Below, piece after piece: positions 49,453 through 59,699 of a stretch of 64,000 bases of DNA. The DNA lies in contig CAVYHV010000014.1 of assembly GCA_963768425.1 (NCBI GenBank), positions 64,001 to 128,000 of the forward strand, read 5' to 3'. Position 1 is the first letter of the stretch. The number at the start of each line of letters is the position of its first letter. A program made the translations under genes and the position numbers. The notes under the pieces were generated by a model. That model searched no databases and was not told the DNA's origin. It saw only the letters and a list, made by a program, of their open reading frames with translations. The stretch comes from Candidatus Bathyarchaeota archaeon (GTDB taxonomy: Archaea > Thermoproteota > Bathyarchaeia > Bathyarchaeales > Bathycorpusculaceae).

Positions 49453-50091
49453 CTAAAAAAAGCAGGGAATATACTCCCTAACCCTAAACTCTACGCCCAA
49501 ACCATCCGCCAACGCCTTCGCCTCCGACACATCTACTTCAGGCATCCTTATTGCCGTAGCCTCAACCTGCAAAACCGGCTTAGCGTTCCGAATAAACTCA
49601 ATAACTGCCTCGTACGCGCCATCGAAAGTCGGCTTACAAATCTGATTATATGTTTCCTTGTCTCCGGCGTTCAAGCTCACGCTTACTTTGTCAACACCCG
49701 CTGCTAGCAACTCGGCCACCAGATTTCTACACGGATTGAGCAAGTAGCCGTGCCCGTTTGTGTTTACCCGAACTTTTATTGGCCTACCGTAATGCTGTCT
49801 AACCCACGTTGCGAGTCCCAACAAAACATCAAGCCGCTCCGTCGGCTCACCGAACCCGCAGAAAACCACCTCAACCCAGTTCCGCATACCCAAAACCCCT
49901 TCAAGCTCAACTATGATTTGGCCAAGGCTAGGTTCCTCGGCGAATTTTAGGTTGAAGCCGCCAACACCACACTTAAAATTCCTAAGGCAGAAAAAGCAGC
50001 CGTTAGAGCAGCGGTTTGTGATATTCAAGTAAAGCTTATTCTCCAGCCAATATACAGCTTTGGGTTTTTCGTCTTTAGCCATCATTTCCAC
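49453..50091 (-). CDS. TatD-associated radical SAM protein
   Basis: LYLNITNRCSNGCFFC, EVVFCGFGEPT, R.NTNGHG, SVSLNA. Confidence 0.88.
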   Translation of the reverse strand: MEMMAKDEKPKAVYWLENKLYLNITNRCSNGCFFCLRNFKCGVGGFNLKFAEEPSLGQIIVELEGVLGMRNWVEVVFCGFGEPTERLDVLLGLATWVRQHYGRPIKVRVNTNGHGYLLNPCRNLVAELLAAGVDKVSVSLNAGDKETYNQICKPTFDGAYEAVIEFIRNAKPVLQVEATAIRMPEVDVSEAKALADGLGVEFRVREYIPCFF

Positions 50092-50117
50092 GTTTGTCTC
50101 TGAGTCGATTTCTACGT

Positions 50118-50405
50118 TTAGCCGCCTGTCATAAGCGACATTATGATTACGTTGTCCCCGTTTTTCAGTGGGGTGTTGACGCCCTGAAGCTGGTCCATTA
50201 AGACGCCGTTAACCATCGTTACGAAGGTTTGCTTCATTTCTTTTTTGGTTGGGTCATAAACTTCTTGTGTGAATGGTTTTCCGTATTTTTCGGCGACGAC
50301 ACAGAGCAGCTCCGAGAGGGGAAAAGCTTCAGCTAAGTCAAATTCATCTTGGCTTGTTCTTGTGAAGCTTTTGACTAGGCTCAGATAGTGAACTTTTACT
50401 TTCAT
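50118..50405 (-). CDS. MoaD/ThiS/SAMP ubiquitin-like sulfur carrier
   Basis: beta-grasp pattern, C-terminal GG. Confidence 0.9.
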   Translation of the reverse strand: MKVKVHYLSLVKSFTRTSQDEFDLAEAFPLSELLCVVAEKYGKPFTQEVYDPTKKEMKQTFVTMVNGVLMDQLQGVNTPLKNGDNVIIMSLMTGG

Positions 50406-50632: not shown

Positions 50633-52489
50633 TTGCTCGGTTACGCAGGAAAGATTCTACGCGTGAATTTATCTACAGGCAAAATAGCTGTGGAAAAACT
50701 AGACGAGGAAACCGCCAAGAAATACATCGGTGGCATTGGCTTAGGCATGAAACTTTGGCTAGCCAACTCAAAAGCAGGAGTGGATGCATTTAGCCCTGAA
50801 AACCCGCTGGTTCTAGCAGTTGGACCAGTCTCAGCAACGATGTTCCCAACAGGCGGAAACGGGCACGCATTCATTTCAAAGTCACCTGAAACAGGCGCGG
50901 TCGGCGAAGCAGTGAGCCACGGTACCTTTGGGGCAGAAATAAAAAGAGCCGGCTACGACGCCATAATTTTAGTCGGGAAAGCCGAAAGACCCTCATATCT
51001 CTGGATTGACGATGAATCAGTGCAGCTGCTTGACGCAGAAAAAATCTGGGGTAAATCACCCGCTGAAACCGAAGATGCAGTTAAAGATGAACTTGGCGAC
51101 TACTATGTGCGCGTTGCATCAATAGGGTTGGCCAGGGGAAAAACAGTCTAAAATTGCCAACATAATTAATGAGAAAACCCGTGCAGCAGGGAGAACGGGG
51201 CTCGGCGCAGTTATGGGTTCAAAGAACCTTAAAGCGTTCGCTGTCCGTGGAACCAAAGACATCGTTGTAGCTAAACCCGAAGAATTTATTGAAATGGTCA
51301 AAGAGTTTCATGAAAGAATGAAGGGTCCAGCGGCACAAAAATATCGAACTTTGGGGTCGGCAGAAAACGTCATGATCCAAAACGCACTACACTGTTTGCC
51401 CACTCGCAACTACAACAACTCGTATTTTGACCACGCTGAAAGAGTAAGCGGTGAAATCCTTAACGAACGTTACATTGCAAAAATAATCGCTTGCAACTCG
51501 TGCGCAATGCGGTGCGAACATGAAGCGGTTATCCACGATGGACCCTACAAGGGAACAATGGCACGCATGGAGTACGATAACATTTGGGCTCTTGGCCGAA
51601 TTGCGGCGTGGATAAACTTGATGCAATAATCAAAGCGGCTGATCTGTGCAGCTACTACGGTTTAGATGCGACAAGCACAGGCGTTACGATTAGCTTCGTT
51701 ATGGATTGCCATGAAAAAGGCATCTTAACGCACGATGAACTCGGCGGAATAGATGCTCACTTCGGAAACGAAGTGGCACTACTGCAGCTTATCGAGAAAA
51801 TAGGCAAACGAGAGGGAATAGGCGAAATCTTGGCTGACGGAGTGAAAGTAGCCGCAGCGAAAATCGGAAAAGACTCAGACAAGCTTGCCCAAAACATCAA
51901 AGGATTAGAAGTCACAGGCTACGATTTACGATGCCTAAAAACCGCGGCTTTGGGATTTGCAGTTTCATTCCGTGGAGCTGACCACAATCGAAGCGGCGCA
52001 TACGCGTTTGACATTTCAGGCAAAGTCGACCGCCTTAAAGCTGAAAAAGGCCGAGGCAAACTTGTCAAAGACTCAGAAGACATCTACGCACTAATTGATT
52101 CGCTCATAATCTGCAAGAATGCGAGAGGCACCCTGTTCAAGGAGTTGCCGGACCTGTCGAAGCTTTACAAACTGATAACTGGGTACGAGATGACTACGCA
52201 GGAGTTGAGCCTTGCAGGCGAACGGATAAACACCCTTGCCAGACTAATCAACATCCGAGAAGGATTAAGCCGCAAAGACGACACGCTACCATGGAAAGTT
52301 ATGAACCAACCAATCTCAGACGATGGCCCAGGGAAAGGCTCAGTAGTAACCCAAGAGGAACTTGATCTGCTCCTTGACGACTATTACTTGGCACGCGGCT
52401 GGACATTGGATGGAGTACCAACAAAAGACGTTCTAACCAAGCTTGGATTGGACGATCTATCGGGTATAATTGAAGGAAAAGAGGATTAA
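50633..52489 (+). CDS. aor: Tungsten aldehyde:ferredoxin oxidoreductase family, two frameshifts (~51135, ~51595)
   Basis: GYAGKILRVNLS, KSP.TG, AAGRTGLGAVMGSKNLKA, C..CAMRC, YY.ARGW..DG.P. Confidence 0.9.
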
Positions 52490-52491
52490 GA

Positions 52492-52995
52492 ATGGTTAAA
52501 ATTCACGATAGAAAATTCGTTTCCGTCGACCCCGAAAAATGCGTAGGCTGCCAAATATGCGAATACGCTTGCTCATTCACTAAAGAAAAATGTTTCAACC
52601 CGTTGAAATCACGGATACGTGTCGTTAGGGTTAATCAAGTTGCTAACATGTCAGTCACATGCAGACTCTGCGAAGAACCAGCTTGCGTAGCAGCTTGCCC
52701 GAGAAATGCGCTTTCACAGTCAGAAGATACTGGGAACATTGTTCTTGACAAAGACAAATGCAACGGTTGCGGATGGTGCATCGAAGCATGTGACTACGGC
52801 GCAATAATGCTGCATCCAGAAACCAAAGTAGTCTACGTCTGCGACCTCTGCAAAGACAAACCCGACGGACCCCAATGCGTCAAATGGTGCCCAGAAGAAG
52901 CATTAACTCTTGTCACAAGCGATGTGCTAGCCCAAAAAGCAAGAATTAGCGCAATTAAGAAGCTGTTCCAAGAGTCAAAAGAAAAAATAAGCTAA
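52492..52995 (+). CDS. 4x[4Fe-4S] ferredoxin-like subunit following aor
   Basis: 16 Cys in DmsB/HydN-like arrangement. Confidence 0.9.
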   Translation: MVKIHDRKFVSVDPEKCVGCQICEYACSFTKEKCFNPLKSRIRVVRVNQVANMSVTCRLCEEPACVAACPRNALSQSEDTGNIVLDKDKCNGCGWCIEACDYGAIMLHPETKVVYVCDLCKDKPDGPQCVKWCPEEALTLVTSDVLAQKARISAIKKLFQESKEKIS

Positions 52996-53036: not shown

Positions 53037-53636
53037 TTAAAGAGCATTCTCTGCGGTGACGGATTGAACGCTGTCTCTGCCCGCTTGGAACGCTTTCAGA
53101 TTCACGTTGAGGTATTTTTCTTTCAACCTACCTGCAATGGCCTGCTTAAACGACTCAGCCTTAACAGGGACTTCGGGAAGCGCTGAAAGTGCCCCCAACA
53201 GAATCGTGTTGACGACTAAGAGGTTTCCGAGTTTCTCAGCGATTCCGGCTCCGTCTACTTCATGCACCTTGCCTTTCTCCCTTAAAATCTGCATCAACTC
53301 ATCTATCTTCTTAGGCTTCACATTTGAACCGGAAATACACGGCTGAATGTACTTCATATTAACGATCACGTCGCCGCCTCGCCTAAGCATCGGCAAAGCC
53401 CGCGCCGCCTCAAGAATCTCAAAACCCACCAGAACGTCTGCTTTCCCTGTTTCAATCAGCGGTGACTCGACTTTGTCGGCGATTCTCGCGTAAGCCACAA
53501 TTGAGCCTCCACGCTGCGCCATCCCATGAATCTCAGCCTTAGCAACATCAAAGCCCTCCAGAATCGCCGCTTCACAGAAAATGTCACTTAGCACTACCAC
53601 GCCCTGGCCGCCGACGCCGCTAAAAACGGTGTCCAA
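53037..53636 (-). CDS. iorB: Indolepyruvate oxidoreductase beta subunit
   Basis: GVGGQG, EIHGMAQRGGS, N.ILLGAL, N.KAF..G. Confidence 0.92.
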   Translation of the reverse strand: MDTVFSGVGGQGVVVLSDIFCEAAILEGFDVAKAEIHGMAQRGGSIVAYARIADKVESPLIETGKADVLVGFEILEAARALPMLRRGGDVIVNMKYIQPCISGSNVKPKKIDELMQILREKGKVHEVDGAGIAEKLGNLLVVNTILLGALSALPEVPVKAESFKQAIAGRLKEKYLNVNLKAFQAGRDSVQSVTAENAL

Positions 53637-53641
53637 ACTAT

Positions 53642-55834
53642 TCAGTCTTCCTTCCTCCTAACTGCATCGAAGGGACAGACGACTTCACAGACACCGCAAC
53701 CATAGCATAATGAAGCATCAACCGAAACCTTCCCATTTACTTTGTAGATGGCAGGGCACCCAAAGGCTTTTGTACACACTTCGCAGTCTGTGCATTTCTC
53801 AGTGATTTCTCTGGACTTGCCCCTTTCAACAAGGAGTGGACAGGGTCTCTGGGAGATGACGACTGAGGGACCGTCAAAATCAACTATTTTCCGTAACGCT
53901 GAAATCGTGCCGTCAACGTCGTAGGGGTCGACAACAACCACTTTGTCTATACCCAGCCCCCTTGCAACATCCGTCAGCTTCAGGATTTTAGCGTCTACGC
54001 CCATGGCGGTTTTTCCCGAGCCAGGCGTTGGCTGATGCCCCGTCATGGCAACCGTATTATTATCCATAATGACTACGCACACGTTAGCCTTATTGTAAAC
54101 GATGTTCATTAAGCCAGGCATGCCCGCGTGGAAGAAAGTTGAGTCGCCGATGACCGAGAACACCTTGTCTTTAACACCTGCATGAACCATACCTGCAGCC
54201 TGAGAAATCCCCGCACCCATGCAAAGGCAGCTTTGAACCGTGTTGACGGGAGGCAAAACGCCGAGCGTGTAGCAGCCAATGTCGCCTGTAACGATTTTGT
54301 CGTTTGAAGCTCCTGATAGACTCAGAGCTCCTTCGGGGCAGAATGGAATGCATTTGGGTTCGCCACCGCAAGTGTCGCATACCATAGCTTTGCGCGTAGT
54401 CGGATTCAAAGTTACTGAGCCGAACTCGCAGGCTTCAATGCACCAGTCACAACCCTTGCATTTGTCCTCGTCAACCACGATCGCTCCAGTTTGGGTTGAA
54501 CGCATCAAGGCTTTTTCTGGGCAAGCCATGATGCATGGTGCCTCTATGCAGGCTTTGCAAGTTATCGCCGTGTTGAAGGTCTGGCGAAGCCTTACTGAGC
54601 GGATGCGTGATTTAAGCGGGTTGAAAGCATGTTCTTTCTCGAAAGAGCAAATGTACTCGCAGATGTCGCAGCCGACGCATTTGTCGTTGTCGCAGTTAAC
54701 ATGCTGGTTCACCATGTTAAGCGCATAGTAAAATGCTCTGTGGGGACAACCTGGGCAAAGGTTAGGCGGTCTAGGCTGCAAAAACAACGGTTCCTGCGGC
54801 TCAGCTTTGGCTGTTAAGCCTAAACTTGAGAAAGCTTGACGTACACAATCGGGCGTTAACTCACCGATCTCCTCCAAACCCAACTGAGTCTTTCCTAATG
54901 GCTGCATACTCAGCCGTTGCAGATTCTCTTCAATGTACGGCCGCAGCTCCTCAATGACTATGAGTTTCTTTACCTTGAGAGCAAATCTCTGAACAATCTC
55001 ATGAGGAAATGGATGAACAAAACCCAGCTTTAACCAAGAAAACTTTTTTGTATCCAGCACTGAACGAGCATAGTAGTAGCCAACTCCGCTGCCTATGATT
55101 CCGATGTCGCAACCATTATCTTCGATCACATTGAATTTTGAGTGGTTGACAAGCGTTTTTGTTTCCGCCATCTTTACCTCTAAAACTCTGTGTTGCCGAA
55201 TAGCGTTTGAGGGAACCATCACCCATTTAGAGCCCTGCTTGTCAAAGTCGGGTTTGCGGGATAGATTATGGAGTCGACCAAGTTTCACTCGCGCCTTCCC
55301 ATGTGCAACCCTAGTCGTTAAACGCAAAATGATCGGCAAATGCAGCCGCTCGCTGAGTTCGAAGGCTTCCCTCGCCATATCCAAGGCTTCTTGCGGGTTC
55401 CCAGCGTCCAATAAGGGGAGCTTCGAATGGACCGCGAAGTATCGTGTGTCCTGTTCGTTTTGGCTGCTATGCAAAGCTGGGTCATCACAAACCGCGATTA
55501 TCATCCCGCCTTCGACACCTGTGTATGCCAAAGTCATGACGGCGTCTGCGGCGACGTTCAGGCCAACGTGCTTCATGGAAACGATGGAGCGCACGCCTGC
55601 CATCGAAGCGCCCGCGGCTACCTCAACAGCAACGATCTCGTTTATGCTCCATTCGGCGTAGATGCCGAATTCTTTTGATGCCTCAGCGAGGGTTTCCAAA
55701 ATTTCTGTAGCCGGCGTGCCAGGGTAAGAAGCAGCAACTTTAACCGAAGCTTCAACGGCGCCTCTTGCGACTGCTTCATCGCCGTTAAGCAAGGCAAAAC
55801 GGCCCGGCTTATCTACAGCAATTTTGGAAGTCAT
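53642..55834 (-). CDS. iorA: Indolepyruvate oxidoreductase alpha subunit with internal 4x[4Fe-4S] insertion
   Basis: SYPGTP, MKHVGLNVA, SSQNEQD, LCPGCPHR, GDIGCYTLG, GDSTFFH, DN..AMTGHQP, C-terminal ferredoxin. Confidence 0.92.
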   Translation of the reverse strand: MTSKIAVDKPGRFALLNGDEAVARGAVEASVKVAASYPGTPATEILETLAEASKEFGIYAEWSINEIVAVEVAAGASMAGVRSIVSMKHVGLNVAADAVMTLAYTGVEGGMIIAVCDDPALHSSQNEQDTRYFAVHSKLPLLDAGNPQEALDMAREAFELSERLHLPIILRLTTRVAHGKARVKLGRLHNLSRKPDFDKQGSKWVMVPSNAIRQHRVLEVKMAETKTLVNHSKFNVIEDNGCDIGIIGSGVGYYYARSVLDTKKFSWLKLGFVHPFPHEIVQRFALKVKKLIVIEELRPYIEENLQRLSMQPLGKTQLGLEEIGELTPDCVRQAFSSLGLTAKAEPQEPLFLQPRPPNLCPGCPHRAFYYALNMVNQHVNCDNDKCVGCDICEYICSFEKEHAFNPLKSRIRSVRLRQTFNTAITCKACIEAPCIMACPEKALMRSTQTGAIVVDEDKCKGCDWCIEACEFGSVTLNPTTRKAMVCDTCGGEPKCIPFCPEGALSLSGASNDKIVTGDIGCYTLGVLPPVNTVQSCLCMGAGISQAAGMVHAGVKDKVFSVIGDSTFFHAGMPGLMNIVYNKANVCVVIMDNNTVAMTGHQPTPGSGKTAMGVDAKILKLTDVARGLGIDKVVVVDPYDVDGTISALRKIVDFDGPSVVISQRPCPLLVERGKSREITEKCTDCEVCTKAFGCPAIYKVNGKVSVDASLCYGCGVCEVVCPFDAVRRKED

Positions 55835-55846
55835 AGGTTTAGTCCT

Positions 55847-57199
55847 TTACATTTTGCCTTTACGTAAGTCCAGAACCCGCTTTGCTTTCCCCTCAGTCCT
55901 TGGAAGCTCACCCGGCTTCACAATTTCTACGTCTGCCGAAATGCCTGTCACGATGTGTATTTGCTTTTGAATGCCGTTTTTCAACGCGTTCGGATCCAAT
56001 TTTGGATCTTTGGCTGCTTTCTCGGATAATTCAACTTTTACAACGAACGTGTCTAACGCGCCTGGTCTGTCGAGGACGATTAGGTATTGTGTGGCAAGTT
56101 CCGAGAAGCACATGACCGCGTATTCGATTTGCGACGGGAATACGTTTACTCCGCGGATAATGAGCATGTCGTCTGACCTGCCTTGAACACGCATCATTCG
56201 GGCATGTGTTCGTCCGCAGGCGCATGTCTCTGTCTCTATTTTGGACATGTCTCGGGTTCGGTATCTGAGCATAGGCAGGCCCTGCTTTGTCAAGCCTGTG
56301 AAAACTATTTCGCCTTCTTCTCCTGGAGGCAGAACCTCGCCTGTGTCAGAATCAATCGTTTCCACGATAAAGTGATCCTCCCAAATATGCAGCCCCTTAT
56401 GTTCAGCGCATTCTACGGCGACGCCTGGACCGCAAAGCTCGGTTAAACCGTAAACGTCAAAAGCCGAAATTCCCAAGTCCTGCTCTATTCTTTCCCGTAG
56501 CTTGTCTGACCAAGGCTCCGCTCCAAACAGCCCAAGTTTAAGTTTAAGGTCTTTTTTCGGGTCAACGTTTTCCTGAGCCATGGTTTCAGCAAGGTAAACT
56601 GCAAAGCTCGGGGTACAAGCCAAAATCGTGACGCCTAAATCTTTCATAAGCTTAATTTGGCGTTGTGTCATGCCGCCGCTTGCAGGGACGATTTTCGACC
56701 CGATTTTTTGGGCGCCGTAATGGAATCCTAAGCCACCGGTGAATAGACCGTAACCGTAGGCGATGTGTATTGTGTCTTGGCGTCTTCCACCAGCTGTATA
56801 GATGGATCTTGCCATAAGCTCCTGCCAAACATCCATGTCGCCTTTTGTGTATGCTCCAACAATCGGATTCCCAGTAGTCCCGCTTGACGCATGGATCTCC
56901 ACTATTTCGTCAAGTTTAGCAGCGACCATTCCAAATGGGTAGTTGTCTTTCAGATCGCTCTTTATAGTGAAAGGAATCTTTGTAAGATCATCAAGTGAAC
57001 GTATACTTTCAGGTTTTACCCCTGCGCCGTCAAGTCTCTTCTTGTAAAAAGCACTATTCTCATAACAATGCTTCACCAGCTCTTTCAGCTCCTTAAGCTG
57101 AAGTTTCTTTATTTCTTGAGCAGGCATGGTTTCGATTTTTTGGTTCCAGTATTTTTGGTCTACCATTTTCGCGCCCCCTTTAAGGGTCTTGCTTACCAC
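55847..57199 (-). CDS. paaK: Phenylacetate-CoA ligase
   Basis: HASSGTTG, YGYGLFTGGLG.HYG, YGLTE..GPGV, GRSDDMLIIRGVNVFPSQIE. Confidence 0.92.
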   Translation of the reverse strand: MVSKTLKGGAKMVDQKYWNQKIETMPAQEIKKLQLKELKELVKHCYENSAFYKKRLDGAGVKPESIRSLDDLTKIPFTIKSDLKDNYPFGMVAAKLDEIVEIHASSGTTGNPIVGAYTKGDMDVWQELMARSIYTAGGRRQDTIHIAYGYGLFTGGLGFHYGAQKIGSKIVPASGGMTQRQIKLMKDLGVTILACTPSFAVYLAETMAQENVDPKKDLKLKLGLFGAEPWSDKLRERIEQDLGISAFDVYGLTELCGPGVAVECAEHKGLHIWEDHFIVETIDSDTGEVLPPGEEGEIVFTGLTKQGLPMLRYRTRDMSKIETETCACGRTHARMMRVQGRSDDMLIIRGVNVFPSQIEYAVMCFSELATQYLIVLDRPGALDTFVVKVELSEKAAKDPKLDPNALKNGIQKQIHIVTGISADVEIVKPGELPRTEGKAKRVLDLRKGKM

Positions 57200-57997: not shown

Positions 57998-59699
57998 TCA
58001 TTTGGGCTGATTTGCCAGTTTCTTTCTAACTTCAGCCAATTGTTCTTCCAGCTTTGCCTCATCTGCATCTATCTTATGGAACAAAGGTTTCGGCTTAGCT
58101 ATCTTATGCCCTGCATCTAGGGGTTTTGTGGCTTCACTCCAGCTGCCTTCGCTTACCTTCCCAGGCAAATTCAGCGTTTGCCAAAGCTGCTCCGCCGTGT
58201 CGGGGATAAAGGGCGAAGAAACCACAGTGGCAGCTTTCACCACTTGAGCAGCGACATAAAATATAGTCGCAGCTTTTTCCTTGTCCGTTTTCATCAGGTT
58301 CCATGGTTCCTTGGTGTTGAGGTACTGGTTTCCAATTCGGCTAACTGACACAAGGGTGTTTACGGCGGATAGAAGTTTTGAAGCTTCAATTTCTTGGGCT
58401 GCTGCGTCTATTTTTTCCTTGATGGTCTGCATAATGGCCTCGTCGTCTTTGTCAAGTTTCGTGGGCTCCGGGATTGTGTAGTCGAATTTTGAGGCTATGA
58501 AGCTTAGGGTTCGATGTATAAAGTTACCGAATGTGTCATTTAAGTCGGCGTTGATTTTGTCTATAAACGCGTTCCAGGTGAAGTTTGTGTCTTTGCTTTC
58601 GGGTCTCGTGGCGATGAGGAAGAAACGCCAGTAATCCGCCGGGAACATCTCCAGGGCTTCGTCTATCCAGATGCCGACGCGTTGGCTTTTTGATGCTTTT
58701 TGCCCCTTGAACTGCAGAAACTCTGTCGCGGAAACGTTCCAGGGCAAGTTGTAGCCTTGGCCTGAAGCTAAAAGCAGTGCTGGTAGGATTATTGTATGGA
58801 ATGGGATGTTGTCTTTTCCGACGAAGTAGAGGGTTTTGGCTTGTTTGTCAAACCAAAAGTCTCGCCACCTCTCAGGCTGACCCAGCCGCTGACATTGTTC
58901 AATAGTTGCCGACACATAGCCCAAAACGGCGTCGACCCAAACGTAGATGGTTTTGCCTTCCGCCCCAGAGAAAGGTGCGGGTATTCCCCATTCAACGTCT
59001 CGGGTGACAGCACGAGGTTTTAAGCCTTCTTTTATCCAGTTTAAACTGAAGCTTTTGACGTTGCTTGGAAGCTGTTGGTTGCCCTGCAGATACTTCGTCA
59101 GGGATTCGGCAAGTTTTGAGAGGTCGATGTACCAGTGCCGCGTGGATTTTAACGGTTGGTTTGTTTTTGCAGATTACGCAGTACGGATCCACCAAGGCTG
59201 TTGGCTCGAGCAGCCTGCCACACATATCACATTGGTCGCCGCGGGCTTTTTCGCAGCCGCAGTACGGACATTTGCCTTCTACGAAGCGGTCAGGCAGGAA
59301 CCGTTGGTCATGTTCGCAGTATAACATTTGAGTTTCTTGCTCGAAAATGTAGCCGTTTTTCTGGATTTCAAGCAGGGTTTTCTGAACAAACTGCTTGTGA
59401 ATTGGGCTTTCGGTGCTTGTATAATTGTCAAATGACGCTTCCCATCGGCGGAATAGTTCAGCGACGCGGGCATGGTTGCGGTCGGTCAATTCTTTAGGTT
59501 TGACCCCTTGTTTTATGGCTTCGACCTCAATGGGTGTGCCATGTGTGTCTGAACCACTGACCATCAATACCTCGTCGCCCTTTAGGCGGTAGTAACGTGC
59601 GGTGACGTCGGCGGAGAGCACCGAGCCTACGAGGTTACCCAAGTGAGGTGTAACGTTGATGTATGGCCAAGCGGAGGTAACCAAAACTTTTTCAGGCAA
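57998..59699 (-). CDS. metG: Methionyl-tRNA synthetase, single +1 frameshift in an A4 run (~59147-59150)
   Basis: SAWPY..PHLGN, Zn knuckles, [19 protein letters not shown]; removing one A joins both ORFs. Confidence 0.92.

Follow-up and report, generated by a model that had tools for sequence, protein, structure and literature searches.

Descriptions of 2-oxoacid:ferredoxin oxidoreductases usually give one to three iron–sulfur clusters and, as partner, a soluble ferredoxin. In the canonical alpha subunit IorA of indolepyruvate:ferredoxin oxidoreductase (IOR; TIGR03336, as in Thermococcales and methanogens), a POR_N domain is followed by a thiamine pyrophosphate (TPP)-binding domain with the cysteines of the TPP-proximal cluster and by a C-terminal 2x[4Fe-4S] ferredoxin domain, and the beta subunit IorB is a separate protein. 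The IorA considered here has this domain order in common with the canonical form, but carries approximately 122–135 extra residues, which would add four clusters, between the second and the third proximal-cluster cysteine. It is encoded in a stretch of 64,000 nucleotides from a Candidatus Bathyarchaeota archaeon (GenBank assembly GCA_963768425.1, contig CAVYHV010000014.1, positions 64,001 to 128,000), hereafter the window, to which all coordinates refer unless another contig is named. An earlier note on this DNA took the extra domain for an in-frame copy of the ferredoxin subunit of a neighbouring tungsten-type aldehyde:ferredoxin oxidoreductase (AOR). The insert proves to be an old domain of one lineage of IorA, and it is probably a built-in polyferredoxin.

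Multi-cluster ferredoxins related to this insert, or comparable to it, are known from several enzymes. PadI belongs to the NADH-dependent phenylglyoxylate dehydrogenase, one of the 2-oxoacid oxidoreductases that take part in aromatic metabolism. On this separate subunit a polyferredoxin is joined to a flavoprotein part, for which the IorA insert has no counterpart. Among proteins of solved structure, WorS (9mqx), AorA (8c0z) and the small subunit of WOR5 (WOR5-S, 6x6u) have the 16-Cys double-ferredoxin fold in common with the insert, at 38–39% sequence identity. According to two papers, a fold of the WorS/AorA type acts as a four-cluster wire linking a catalytic subunit and a further module; in AorA and WorS, electrons are relayed from the catalytic subunit to a flavoprotein, and the C-terminal helix joins the subunits into a nanowire (PMC10413684, PMC12318220). 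In contrast to these separate subunits, the insert is an internal domain of a TPP enzyme, lacks the wire-forming C-terminal helix, has a conserved extra cysteine (C381) and is seldom found beside an AOR gene (6 of 80 loci). A looser parallel is offered by the methanogen pyruvate:ferredoxin oxidoreductase, which is encoded with the polyferredoxins PorE and PorF; these are discussed as accessory to the enzyme in a review (PMC13768988). PorE and PorF are likewise extra multi-cluster ferredoxins tied to a 2-oxoacid oxidoreductase, but they are separate proteins that, according to the same review, are sometimes missing from the purified enzyme.

The IorA gene lies on the reverse strand and is divided as follows.

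53642..55834, reverse strand: IorA with the insert, 730 aa (open reading frame, Pfam, NCBIfam TIGR03336)
54716..55834, reverse strand: residues 1–373, N-terminal core (POR_N and the next domain), ending in CPGC (C360, C363)
54296..54715, reverse strand: residues 374–513, double-ferredoxin insert with 16 Cys plus C381
53825..54295, reverse strand: residues 514–670, TPP-binding domain (TPP_enzyme_C) with C521 and C665
53645..53812, reverse strand: residues 675–730, C-terminal 2x[4Fe-4S] ferredoxin domain

The protein scores 690.2 bits against the equivalog family TIGR03336 (IOR_alpha; cut-off 650.9), and the 595-position model is covered in two stretches with the break at residue 377. Pfam places POR_N (PF01855) at residues 25–189 (E 6e-19), TPP_enzyme_C (PF02775) at residues 518–659 (E 6e-22) and C-terminal Fer4 domains at residues 677–725 (Fer4_10 at 677–721, Fer4 at 704–725), so the usual C-terminal ferredoxin is indeed retained. 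A search with this IorA as query finds a single IorA in the source genome. An alignment of 139 IorA sequences (54 of them insert-bearing, 85 insert-less) shows that C681, C687, C693, C710, C713, C716 and C720 of the C-terminal ferredoxin are invariant and that C684 is nearly so, and that outside this domain the only invariant cysteines are C360, C363, C521 and C665. In 2-oxoacid oxidoreductases, four such cysteines hold the TPP-proximal cluster, and by analogy C360, C363, C521 and C665 are its putative [4Fe-4S] ligands here. When the protein was modelled with AlphaFold2 (AF2) on alignment A1, the N-terminal core (residues 1–373) was mostly predicted with a pLDDT above 90, and the best structural matches of the modelled core are pyruvate:ferredoxin and 2-oxoglutarate oxidoreductase structures (PFOR and OGOR).

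The insert is located between CPGCPH (C360, C363) and GDIGC (C521), and the loop between the second and the third proximal-cluster ligand is therefore split. The CxGCxH...GC motifs are 157–158 residues apart in this IorA and in 114 of the 120 best database clusters, the other six being truncated. Among the 150 best IorA representatives at 50% identity, in contrast, the spacing is 22–36 residues in 133 and unparsed in 17, and none exceeds 45 residues, which agrees with the earlier note in that only a short loop is normal at this site.

Within residues 378–506 (window positions 54317–54703), the cluster-motif cysteines fall into four groups (386/389/392/396, 426/429/434/438, 459/462/465/469 and 486/489/495/499), and C381 stands in addition. 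All 16 are invariant over 138 aligned rows of inserts and free subunits. The observation of the earlier note is borne out: a domain of about 130 residues with the 16-Cys pattern does lie inside the TPP-binding half of IorA. Full-length inserts contain 17 cysteines in 72 of 74 cases and 18 in the other two. The 17th, C381 (window 54692–54694), lies five residues ahead of the first cluster motif and is kept in inserts, with Val or another residue taking its place in the free subunits. Pfam recognizes the dicluster domain Fer4_11 at residues 423–506. In a BLASTP comparison, residues 378–506 are identical to the neighbouring free ferredoxin subunit (open reading frame 52492–52995) at 72 of 131 positions (55%, E 9e-53); this reproduces the identity estimated by hand in the earlier note, and the likeness is thus far beyond chance. 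The best NCBIfam match of the insert is PadI (NF045766, E 4e-23, profile positions 6–138 of 443), which the free neighbour subunit matches as well (E 3.5e-26); membership of the insert in the PadI family fails, with 82 bits against a cut-off of 700 and the flavoprotein part not matched.

Sequence matches of the insert in the PDB are 9mqx_E (WorS), 6x6u_B/6x1o_B (WOR5) and 8c0z_C (AorA), with E values of about 1e-25. An AF2 run with alignment A2, made of inserts and free subunits, gave the insert a pLDDT of 82–94. The top Foldseek chains for this model are 8c0z_C, 9mqx_G/E and 6x6u_B, with TM scores (target) of 0.72–0.80 and root-mean-square deviations of 1.8–2.0 Å across 132–133 columns. In its modelled fold, the insert matches WorS, AorA and WOR5-S, all of them small Fe-S subunits of tungsten AORs. 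It has no C-terminal helix, however, since the chain is back in IorA about 14 residues past the last cysteine (C499), where the free subunits have a conserved C-terminal tail of 25 to approximately 60 residues.

The architecture recurs in many Bathyarchaeia. At least 161 species-level loci with the insert were confirmed among GTDB species genomes, and 80 of them, all titled Bathyarchaeia, Bathyarchaeota or Thermoproteota, were kept for locus counts. The motif spacing is 156–158 residues in 78 of these, the other two (L025, L046) being unparsed by the motif pattern, and the insert-bearing loci include complete chromosomes. In a search of 5.8 billion proteins, the best 120 clusters are 74–98% identical over 201 residues spanning both junctions. 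The junctions, for which the earlier note had asked for read support, are bridged without gaps by contigs from three runs of peat metagenomes, namely X1 (record 6, 54234–54850), X2 (record 24, 53841–55900) and X3 (record 31, 53943–54850). A contig from RNA library X19 (record 16, 54401–54887) spans the upstream junction, and contigs of the same library partly cover the genes for the AOR, the free subunit and IorA; these contigs are not proof of transcription. Judged by record titles and run labels, insert-bearing Bathyarchaeia come from peat, soil and sediment, and the public database names of the proteins are generic ('TPP-dependent indolepyruvate ferredoxin oxidoreductase alpha subunit', 'thiamine pyrophosphate-dependent enzyme').

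A survey of the distribution of the insert, as proposed in the earlier note, finds it to be common to the IorA orthologues of two families of Bathyarchaeia. A junction-spanning match is present in 60 of 401 sampled class genomes, all of them from two families (f1 and f5) within a single order. Sampling at the level of the order covered 171 genomes, 74 of which have an IorA; 36 of these 74 have the insert form (62–100% identity), with an open reading frame of 730–773 aa in the 33 rows that are not cut short. The remaining 38 have solely an insert-less IorA (41–49% identity) with a full-length reading frame of 619–669 aa. Both forms occur together in one genome of this sample, G253, where an insert-bearing and a canonical IorA lie approximately 11 kb apart on contig C2 (locus L108); the motif pattern did not recover the insert-bearing copy in this locus. 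Two metagenome-assembled genomes each have two insert-bearing copies on separate contigs (L019/L021 and L053/L055); in one such pair the inserts are identical and one copy is approximately 4 kb from a contig end, a possible assembly duplicate.

The insert probably has a single origin within IorA. When insert columns are left out, the insert-bearing sequences form one group with 100% support in the IorA tree, indicating a single gain. Only one close relative, P0121 (607 aa), lacks the insert; it is nested within this group (SH-aLRT 99/100/96), so that the insert has been lost secondarily at least once. The P0121 cluster also contains a second protein of full length, obtained from another source. 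In 26–29 pairs among 11 near relatives, the median dN/dS was 0.098 in the insert, compared with 0.048 in the N part and 0.080 in the C part of IorA; dS in these pairs is approximately 1.2–1.3, near saturation.

With regard to the donor, the insert is 56, 54, 52 and 46% identical to the four close free paralogues of the source genome, the highest value being that of the neighbour. The 54% and 52% paralogues (contigs C12 and C22) adjoin no AOR gene, and free proteins from elsewhere reach up to 63% identity with the insert. Two maximum likelihood (ML) trees of inserts and free subunits were calculated. In the first, the long-branch paralogues own_C13 and own_C30 failed as the intended outgroup; the second contained 27 of 79 inserts and was made after own_C13, own_C30 and P0320 had been dropped. 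The IorA fragments P0271, P0272, P0273, P0284 and P0318 were left out of the free-subunit set. The free subunits fall on one side of a branch with an SH-aLRT of 99 (55 of 56 in the first tree, 53 of 53 in the second), and the neighbour-type subunit is nested deep among them. However, an approximately unbiased (AU) test does not reject a tree in which inserts and neighbour-type subunits form one clade (delta lnL 10.2, p 0.358), which means that the tree by itself leaves room for descent of the insert from the neighbour-type sub-lineage. The case against a recent copy rests on distribution and synteny. Taken together, the insert did not arise by recent copying of the neighbour, but is old, has been kept under purifying selection and has descended along with the IorA core. 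Of the origin claimed in the earlier note, homology to an AOR-type ferredoxin subunit stands, but copying from the neighbour does not, in view of the paralogue identities, the distribution and the synteny.

The genes next to IorA in the window are as follows.

53037..53636, reverse strand: IorB, 199 aa (Pfam POR, PF01558, E 1.6e-37)
55847..57199, reverse strand: PaaK-like aryl-acetate (phenylacetate)-CoA ligase, directly upstream of IorA
52492..52995, forward strand: free 16-Cys ferredoxin subunit (WorS/AorA-like) with C-terminal tail (Fer4_11), convergent with IorB
50633..52489, forward strand: large subunit of a tungsten-type AOR (AFOR_N and AFOR_C, in three pieces)
49453..50405, reverse strand: radical SAM and ThiS/MoaD-like proteins, upstream of the AOR gene (Pfam)

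The top NCBIfam families of IorB are IOR beta families, with scores below the cut-offs. The PaaK-like ligase has AMP-binding and AMP-binding_C_2 domains (Pfam) and scores 560 bits against TIGR02155 (cut-off 646). The free subunit matches 9mqx_E in the PDB (E 9e-27), and the consensus of the free-subunit tail is TxDxLAQKARISAxKKLF. The AOR operon and the IorBA genes converge, with 41 bp between the stop codons, and because of this orientation they are not co-transcribed. Free subunits are present in 339 of the 401 class genomes, and their co-occurrence with the insert is therefore uninformative either way.

For the 80 loci, flanks of at most 6 kb were considered (some loci being shorter). IorA is present in all 80 loci, and IorB and the upstream PaaK-like ligase are each present in 78. 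They are joined by two ABC ATPase genes (59), a Liv-type binding protein (58), a first and a second permease (57 and 56) and a 4HBT thioesterase (61), while genes for an ACT protein (51) and an ADP-forming CoA ligase (42) lie upstream in divergent orientation. For this common context, Pfam was applied only to the representatives taken from locus L038. Genes for an AOR and a free ferredoxin stand beside IorAB only in the six nearest relatives (L013–L018). The usual context is that of an aryl-acid or aromatic amino acid module and does not point to AOR.

The AOR large-subunit gene of the window is split into three reading frames by two compensating frame changes of one nucleotide. Contigs from four runs, representing relatives that are 90–99% alike, have one base less at 51132/51134 and an extra C after 51595. 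The frame changes at approximately 51133 and 51595 are either an assembly error or a strain-specific pseudogene, and the contigs of the relatives would restore the frame. Further split genes are a MetRS gene (57998–59699, reverse strand), AOR genes on contigs C6 (113785–115705) and C13 (14280–15945) and a gene for an XPB-like helicase on contig C12 (2445–3808). IorA is intact, although the assembly seems to be liable to frame errors of a single base. The pair of radical SAM and ThiS/MoaD-like genes, which adjoins AOR in L013 and L018 as well, may serve cofactor maturation for the tungsten enzyme.

A fourth AOR-family large subunit of 622 aa is encoded by an intact gene on contig C8 (23923–25791, locus L101) and has no adjoining 16-Cys ferredoxin gene. 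The paralogues on contigs C12 (5472–6083) and C22 (89577–90209), loci L099 and L100, are 16-Cys ferredoxins of 203–210 aa that lie among unrelated genes, next to helicase/DUF790 and thioesterase genes in one case and to genes for deoxyhypusine synthase, a deacetylase and ArgRS in the other. Both orphans have a long, conserved and charged C-terminal extension, common to about 20 database proteins, and they are possibly soluble polyferredoxins.

As to function, we consider it probable, with considerable room for doubt, that the insert is a built-in polyferredoxin of a lineage-specific IorA and provides a second electron conduit, giving seven clusters per alpha subunit. On this proposal, the ancestor of one clade of Bathyarchaeia IorA would have gained a double-ferredoxin domain of the WorS/AorA type with four [4Fe-4S] clusters, which would since have been inherited vertically under purifying selection. 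At both of its ends, the insert joins the rest of the polypeptide immediately beside the proximal cluster, and one end of the four-cluster chain should therefore lie within electron-tunnelling reach of that cluster. The second conduit would then branch from the proximal cluster beside the C-terminal two-cluster domain (1 + 2 + 4 = 7 clusters), and it would lead to a dedicated redox partner, or store electrons, instead of serving free ferredoxin alone. In proteins of the DmsB/FdnH type, it is the half made up of motifs I and IV that is turned towards the catalytic module. By analogy, the motif I/IV half of the insert, which holds both termini, may face the IorA core and the motif II/III half may point outward, in which case the IorA core would correspond in position to the AOR large subunit on WorS. 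The domain, its position, its conservation and its distribution are observed, whereas the occupancy of the clusters, their electronic link to the proximal cluster, a redox partner and the reaction direction are inferred. From the conserved operon of a Liv-type ABC transporter, PaaK-like ligase, IorA, IorB and thioesterase, with the ACT protein and the ADP-forming CoA ligase nearby, it follows as a prediction that the enzyme interconverts arylpyruvates and arylacetyl-CoA.

Several observations weigh against this proposal. In the AF2 run with alignment A1 the core was modelled well, but the insert had a pLDDT of 32–69 and was not placed on the core; with alignment A2 it was the insert that came out well, whereas the core and both linkers were poor (pLDDT 31–39 at residues 511–540, pTM 0.49). 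Neither run places the insert, which leaves chain connectivity as the sole basis for the proximal-cluster contact. No candidate partner gene is conserved beside the operon within the flanks of the 80 loci. The source genome has chorismate synthase and EPSP synthase, so that an anabolic role is not forced, and CoA ligases of two types, AMP-forming and ADP-forming, lie in the usual neighbourhood. Furthermore, as the insert-less P0121 derivative indicates, the insert is evidently not needed for the core enzyme to be maintained.

Some of these observations would suit an insert that stands off the catalytic electron path, as a structural, stabilising, oligomerising or redox-sensing/electron-storage appendage that, for example, holds alpha–beta protomers together or buffers electrons without a specific partner. 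The loss in the P0121 lineage marks the insert as dispensable for a working gene, no conserved partner gene was found in the 80 loci and the linkers are modelled at low confidence, all of which such an appendage would accommodate. Nevertheless, a working Fe-S chain agrees with 16 invariant ligands and with a dN/dS of approximately 0.1 throughout a deep clade, and the solved relatives of the fold are all electron wires (PMC10413684, PMC12318220), so we regard a role off the path as unlikely.

The proposal of the earlier note goes further than homology, in that a graft of the neighbouring AOR ferredoxin subunit would give IOR an AOR-docking surface and a direct IOR–AOR exchange of electrons, either with the AOR large subunit sitting on the insert or with the insert joining a WorS-type nanowire of free subunits. 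The insert is of one family with AOR small subunits; in the window, 41 bp separate IorB from the genes of the free subunit and the AOR, which also adjoin IorAB in five near relatives. Yet an AOR or free-subunit gene occurs in the flanks of only 6 of 80 loci, the other 74 having transporter, ligase and thioesterase, and in the window itself the genes are convergent. Similarly, the AU test leaves inserts and neighbour-type subunits as one clade unrejected, but the ML trees put the free subunits beyond the 99% branch and the insert is no nearer to the neighbour (56%) than to the two orphan paralogues (54% and 52%). The C-terminal tail of the free subunit resembles the helix that builds AorA and WorS wires (PMC10413684, PMC12318220), and when the helix groove of WorS is mapped through the alignment, four of five positions are hydrophobic in the insert (V414, L416, I424 and F471, with T422 as the exception); the insert, however, lacks the C-terminal helix that is needed to extend such a wire. 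A recent graft is contradicted by the distribution of the insert in Bathyarchaeia, and docking to AOR as a whole is given a low probability.

A related and similarly improbable reading makes the insert an end unit, which would receive the C-terminal helix of free WorS-like polyferredoxins or dock an NAD(P)-flavoprotein as in PadI and AorC, with IOR as a node on an Fe-S wire. Four free WorS-like polyferredoxins, of the C14, C12, C22 and C6 types, are encoded in the source genome, two of them orphans. If true, this would be a TPP enzyme with two separate electron exits. Electrons of low potential could then pass between it and tungsten AORs or other modules with no need for soluble ferredoxin and could, for example, drive reductive carboxylation of arylacetyl-CoA.

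Finally, an assembly or gene-calling artefact, i.e. a chimeric join in a frameshift-prone assembly where several genes are broken by single-base frame changes (the AORs on C14, C6 and C13, MetRS and the XPB-like helicase), has a negligible probability and is ruled out by the in-frame architecture with constant spacing in the database clusters, Bathyarchaeia loci and complete genomes and by the gap-free contigs of three independent runs over both junctions.

The architecture of this IorA has, as far as could be found, not been described in print. The earlier note knew of no described IorA with this architecture, and a full-text literature search, with subscription journals and supplements outside its scope, turned up none that describes the insert. 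In a genome paper on Bathy-6, Ior is noted simply as being present (PMC7886697). An IorA with seven clusters and a wire domain at the proximal cluster would be a new mode of wiring for a TPP radical enzyme, for which the P0121-type enzyme is a natural deletion control. For uncultured Bathyarchaeia, it could bear on how the metabolism of aromatic amino acids and aryl acids is coupled to the low-potential electron pool.

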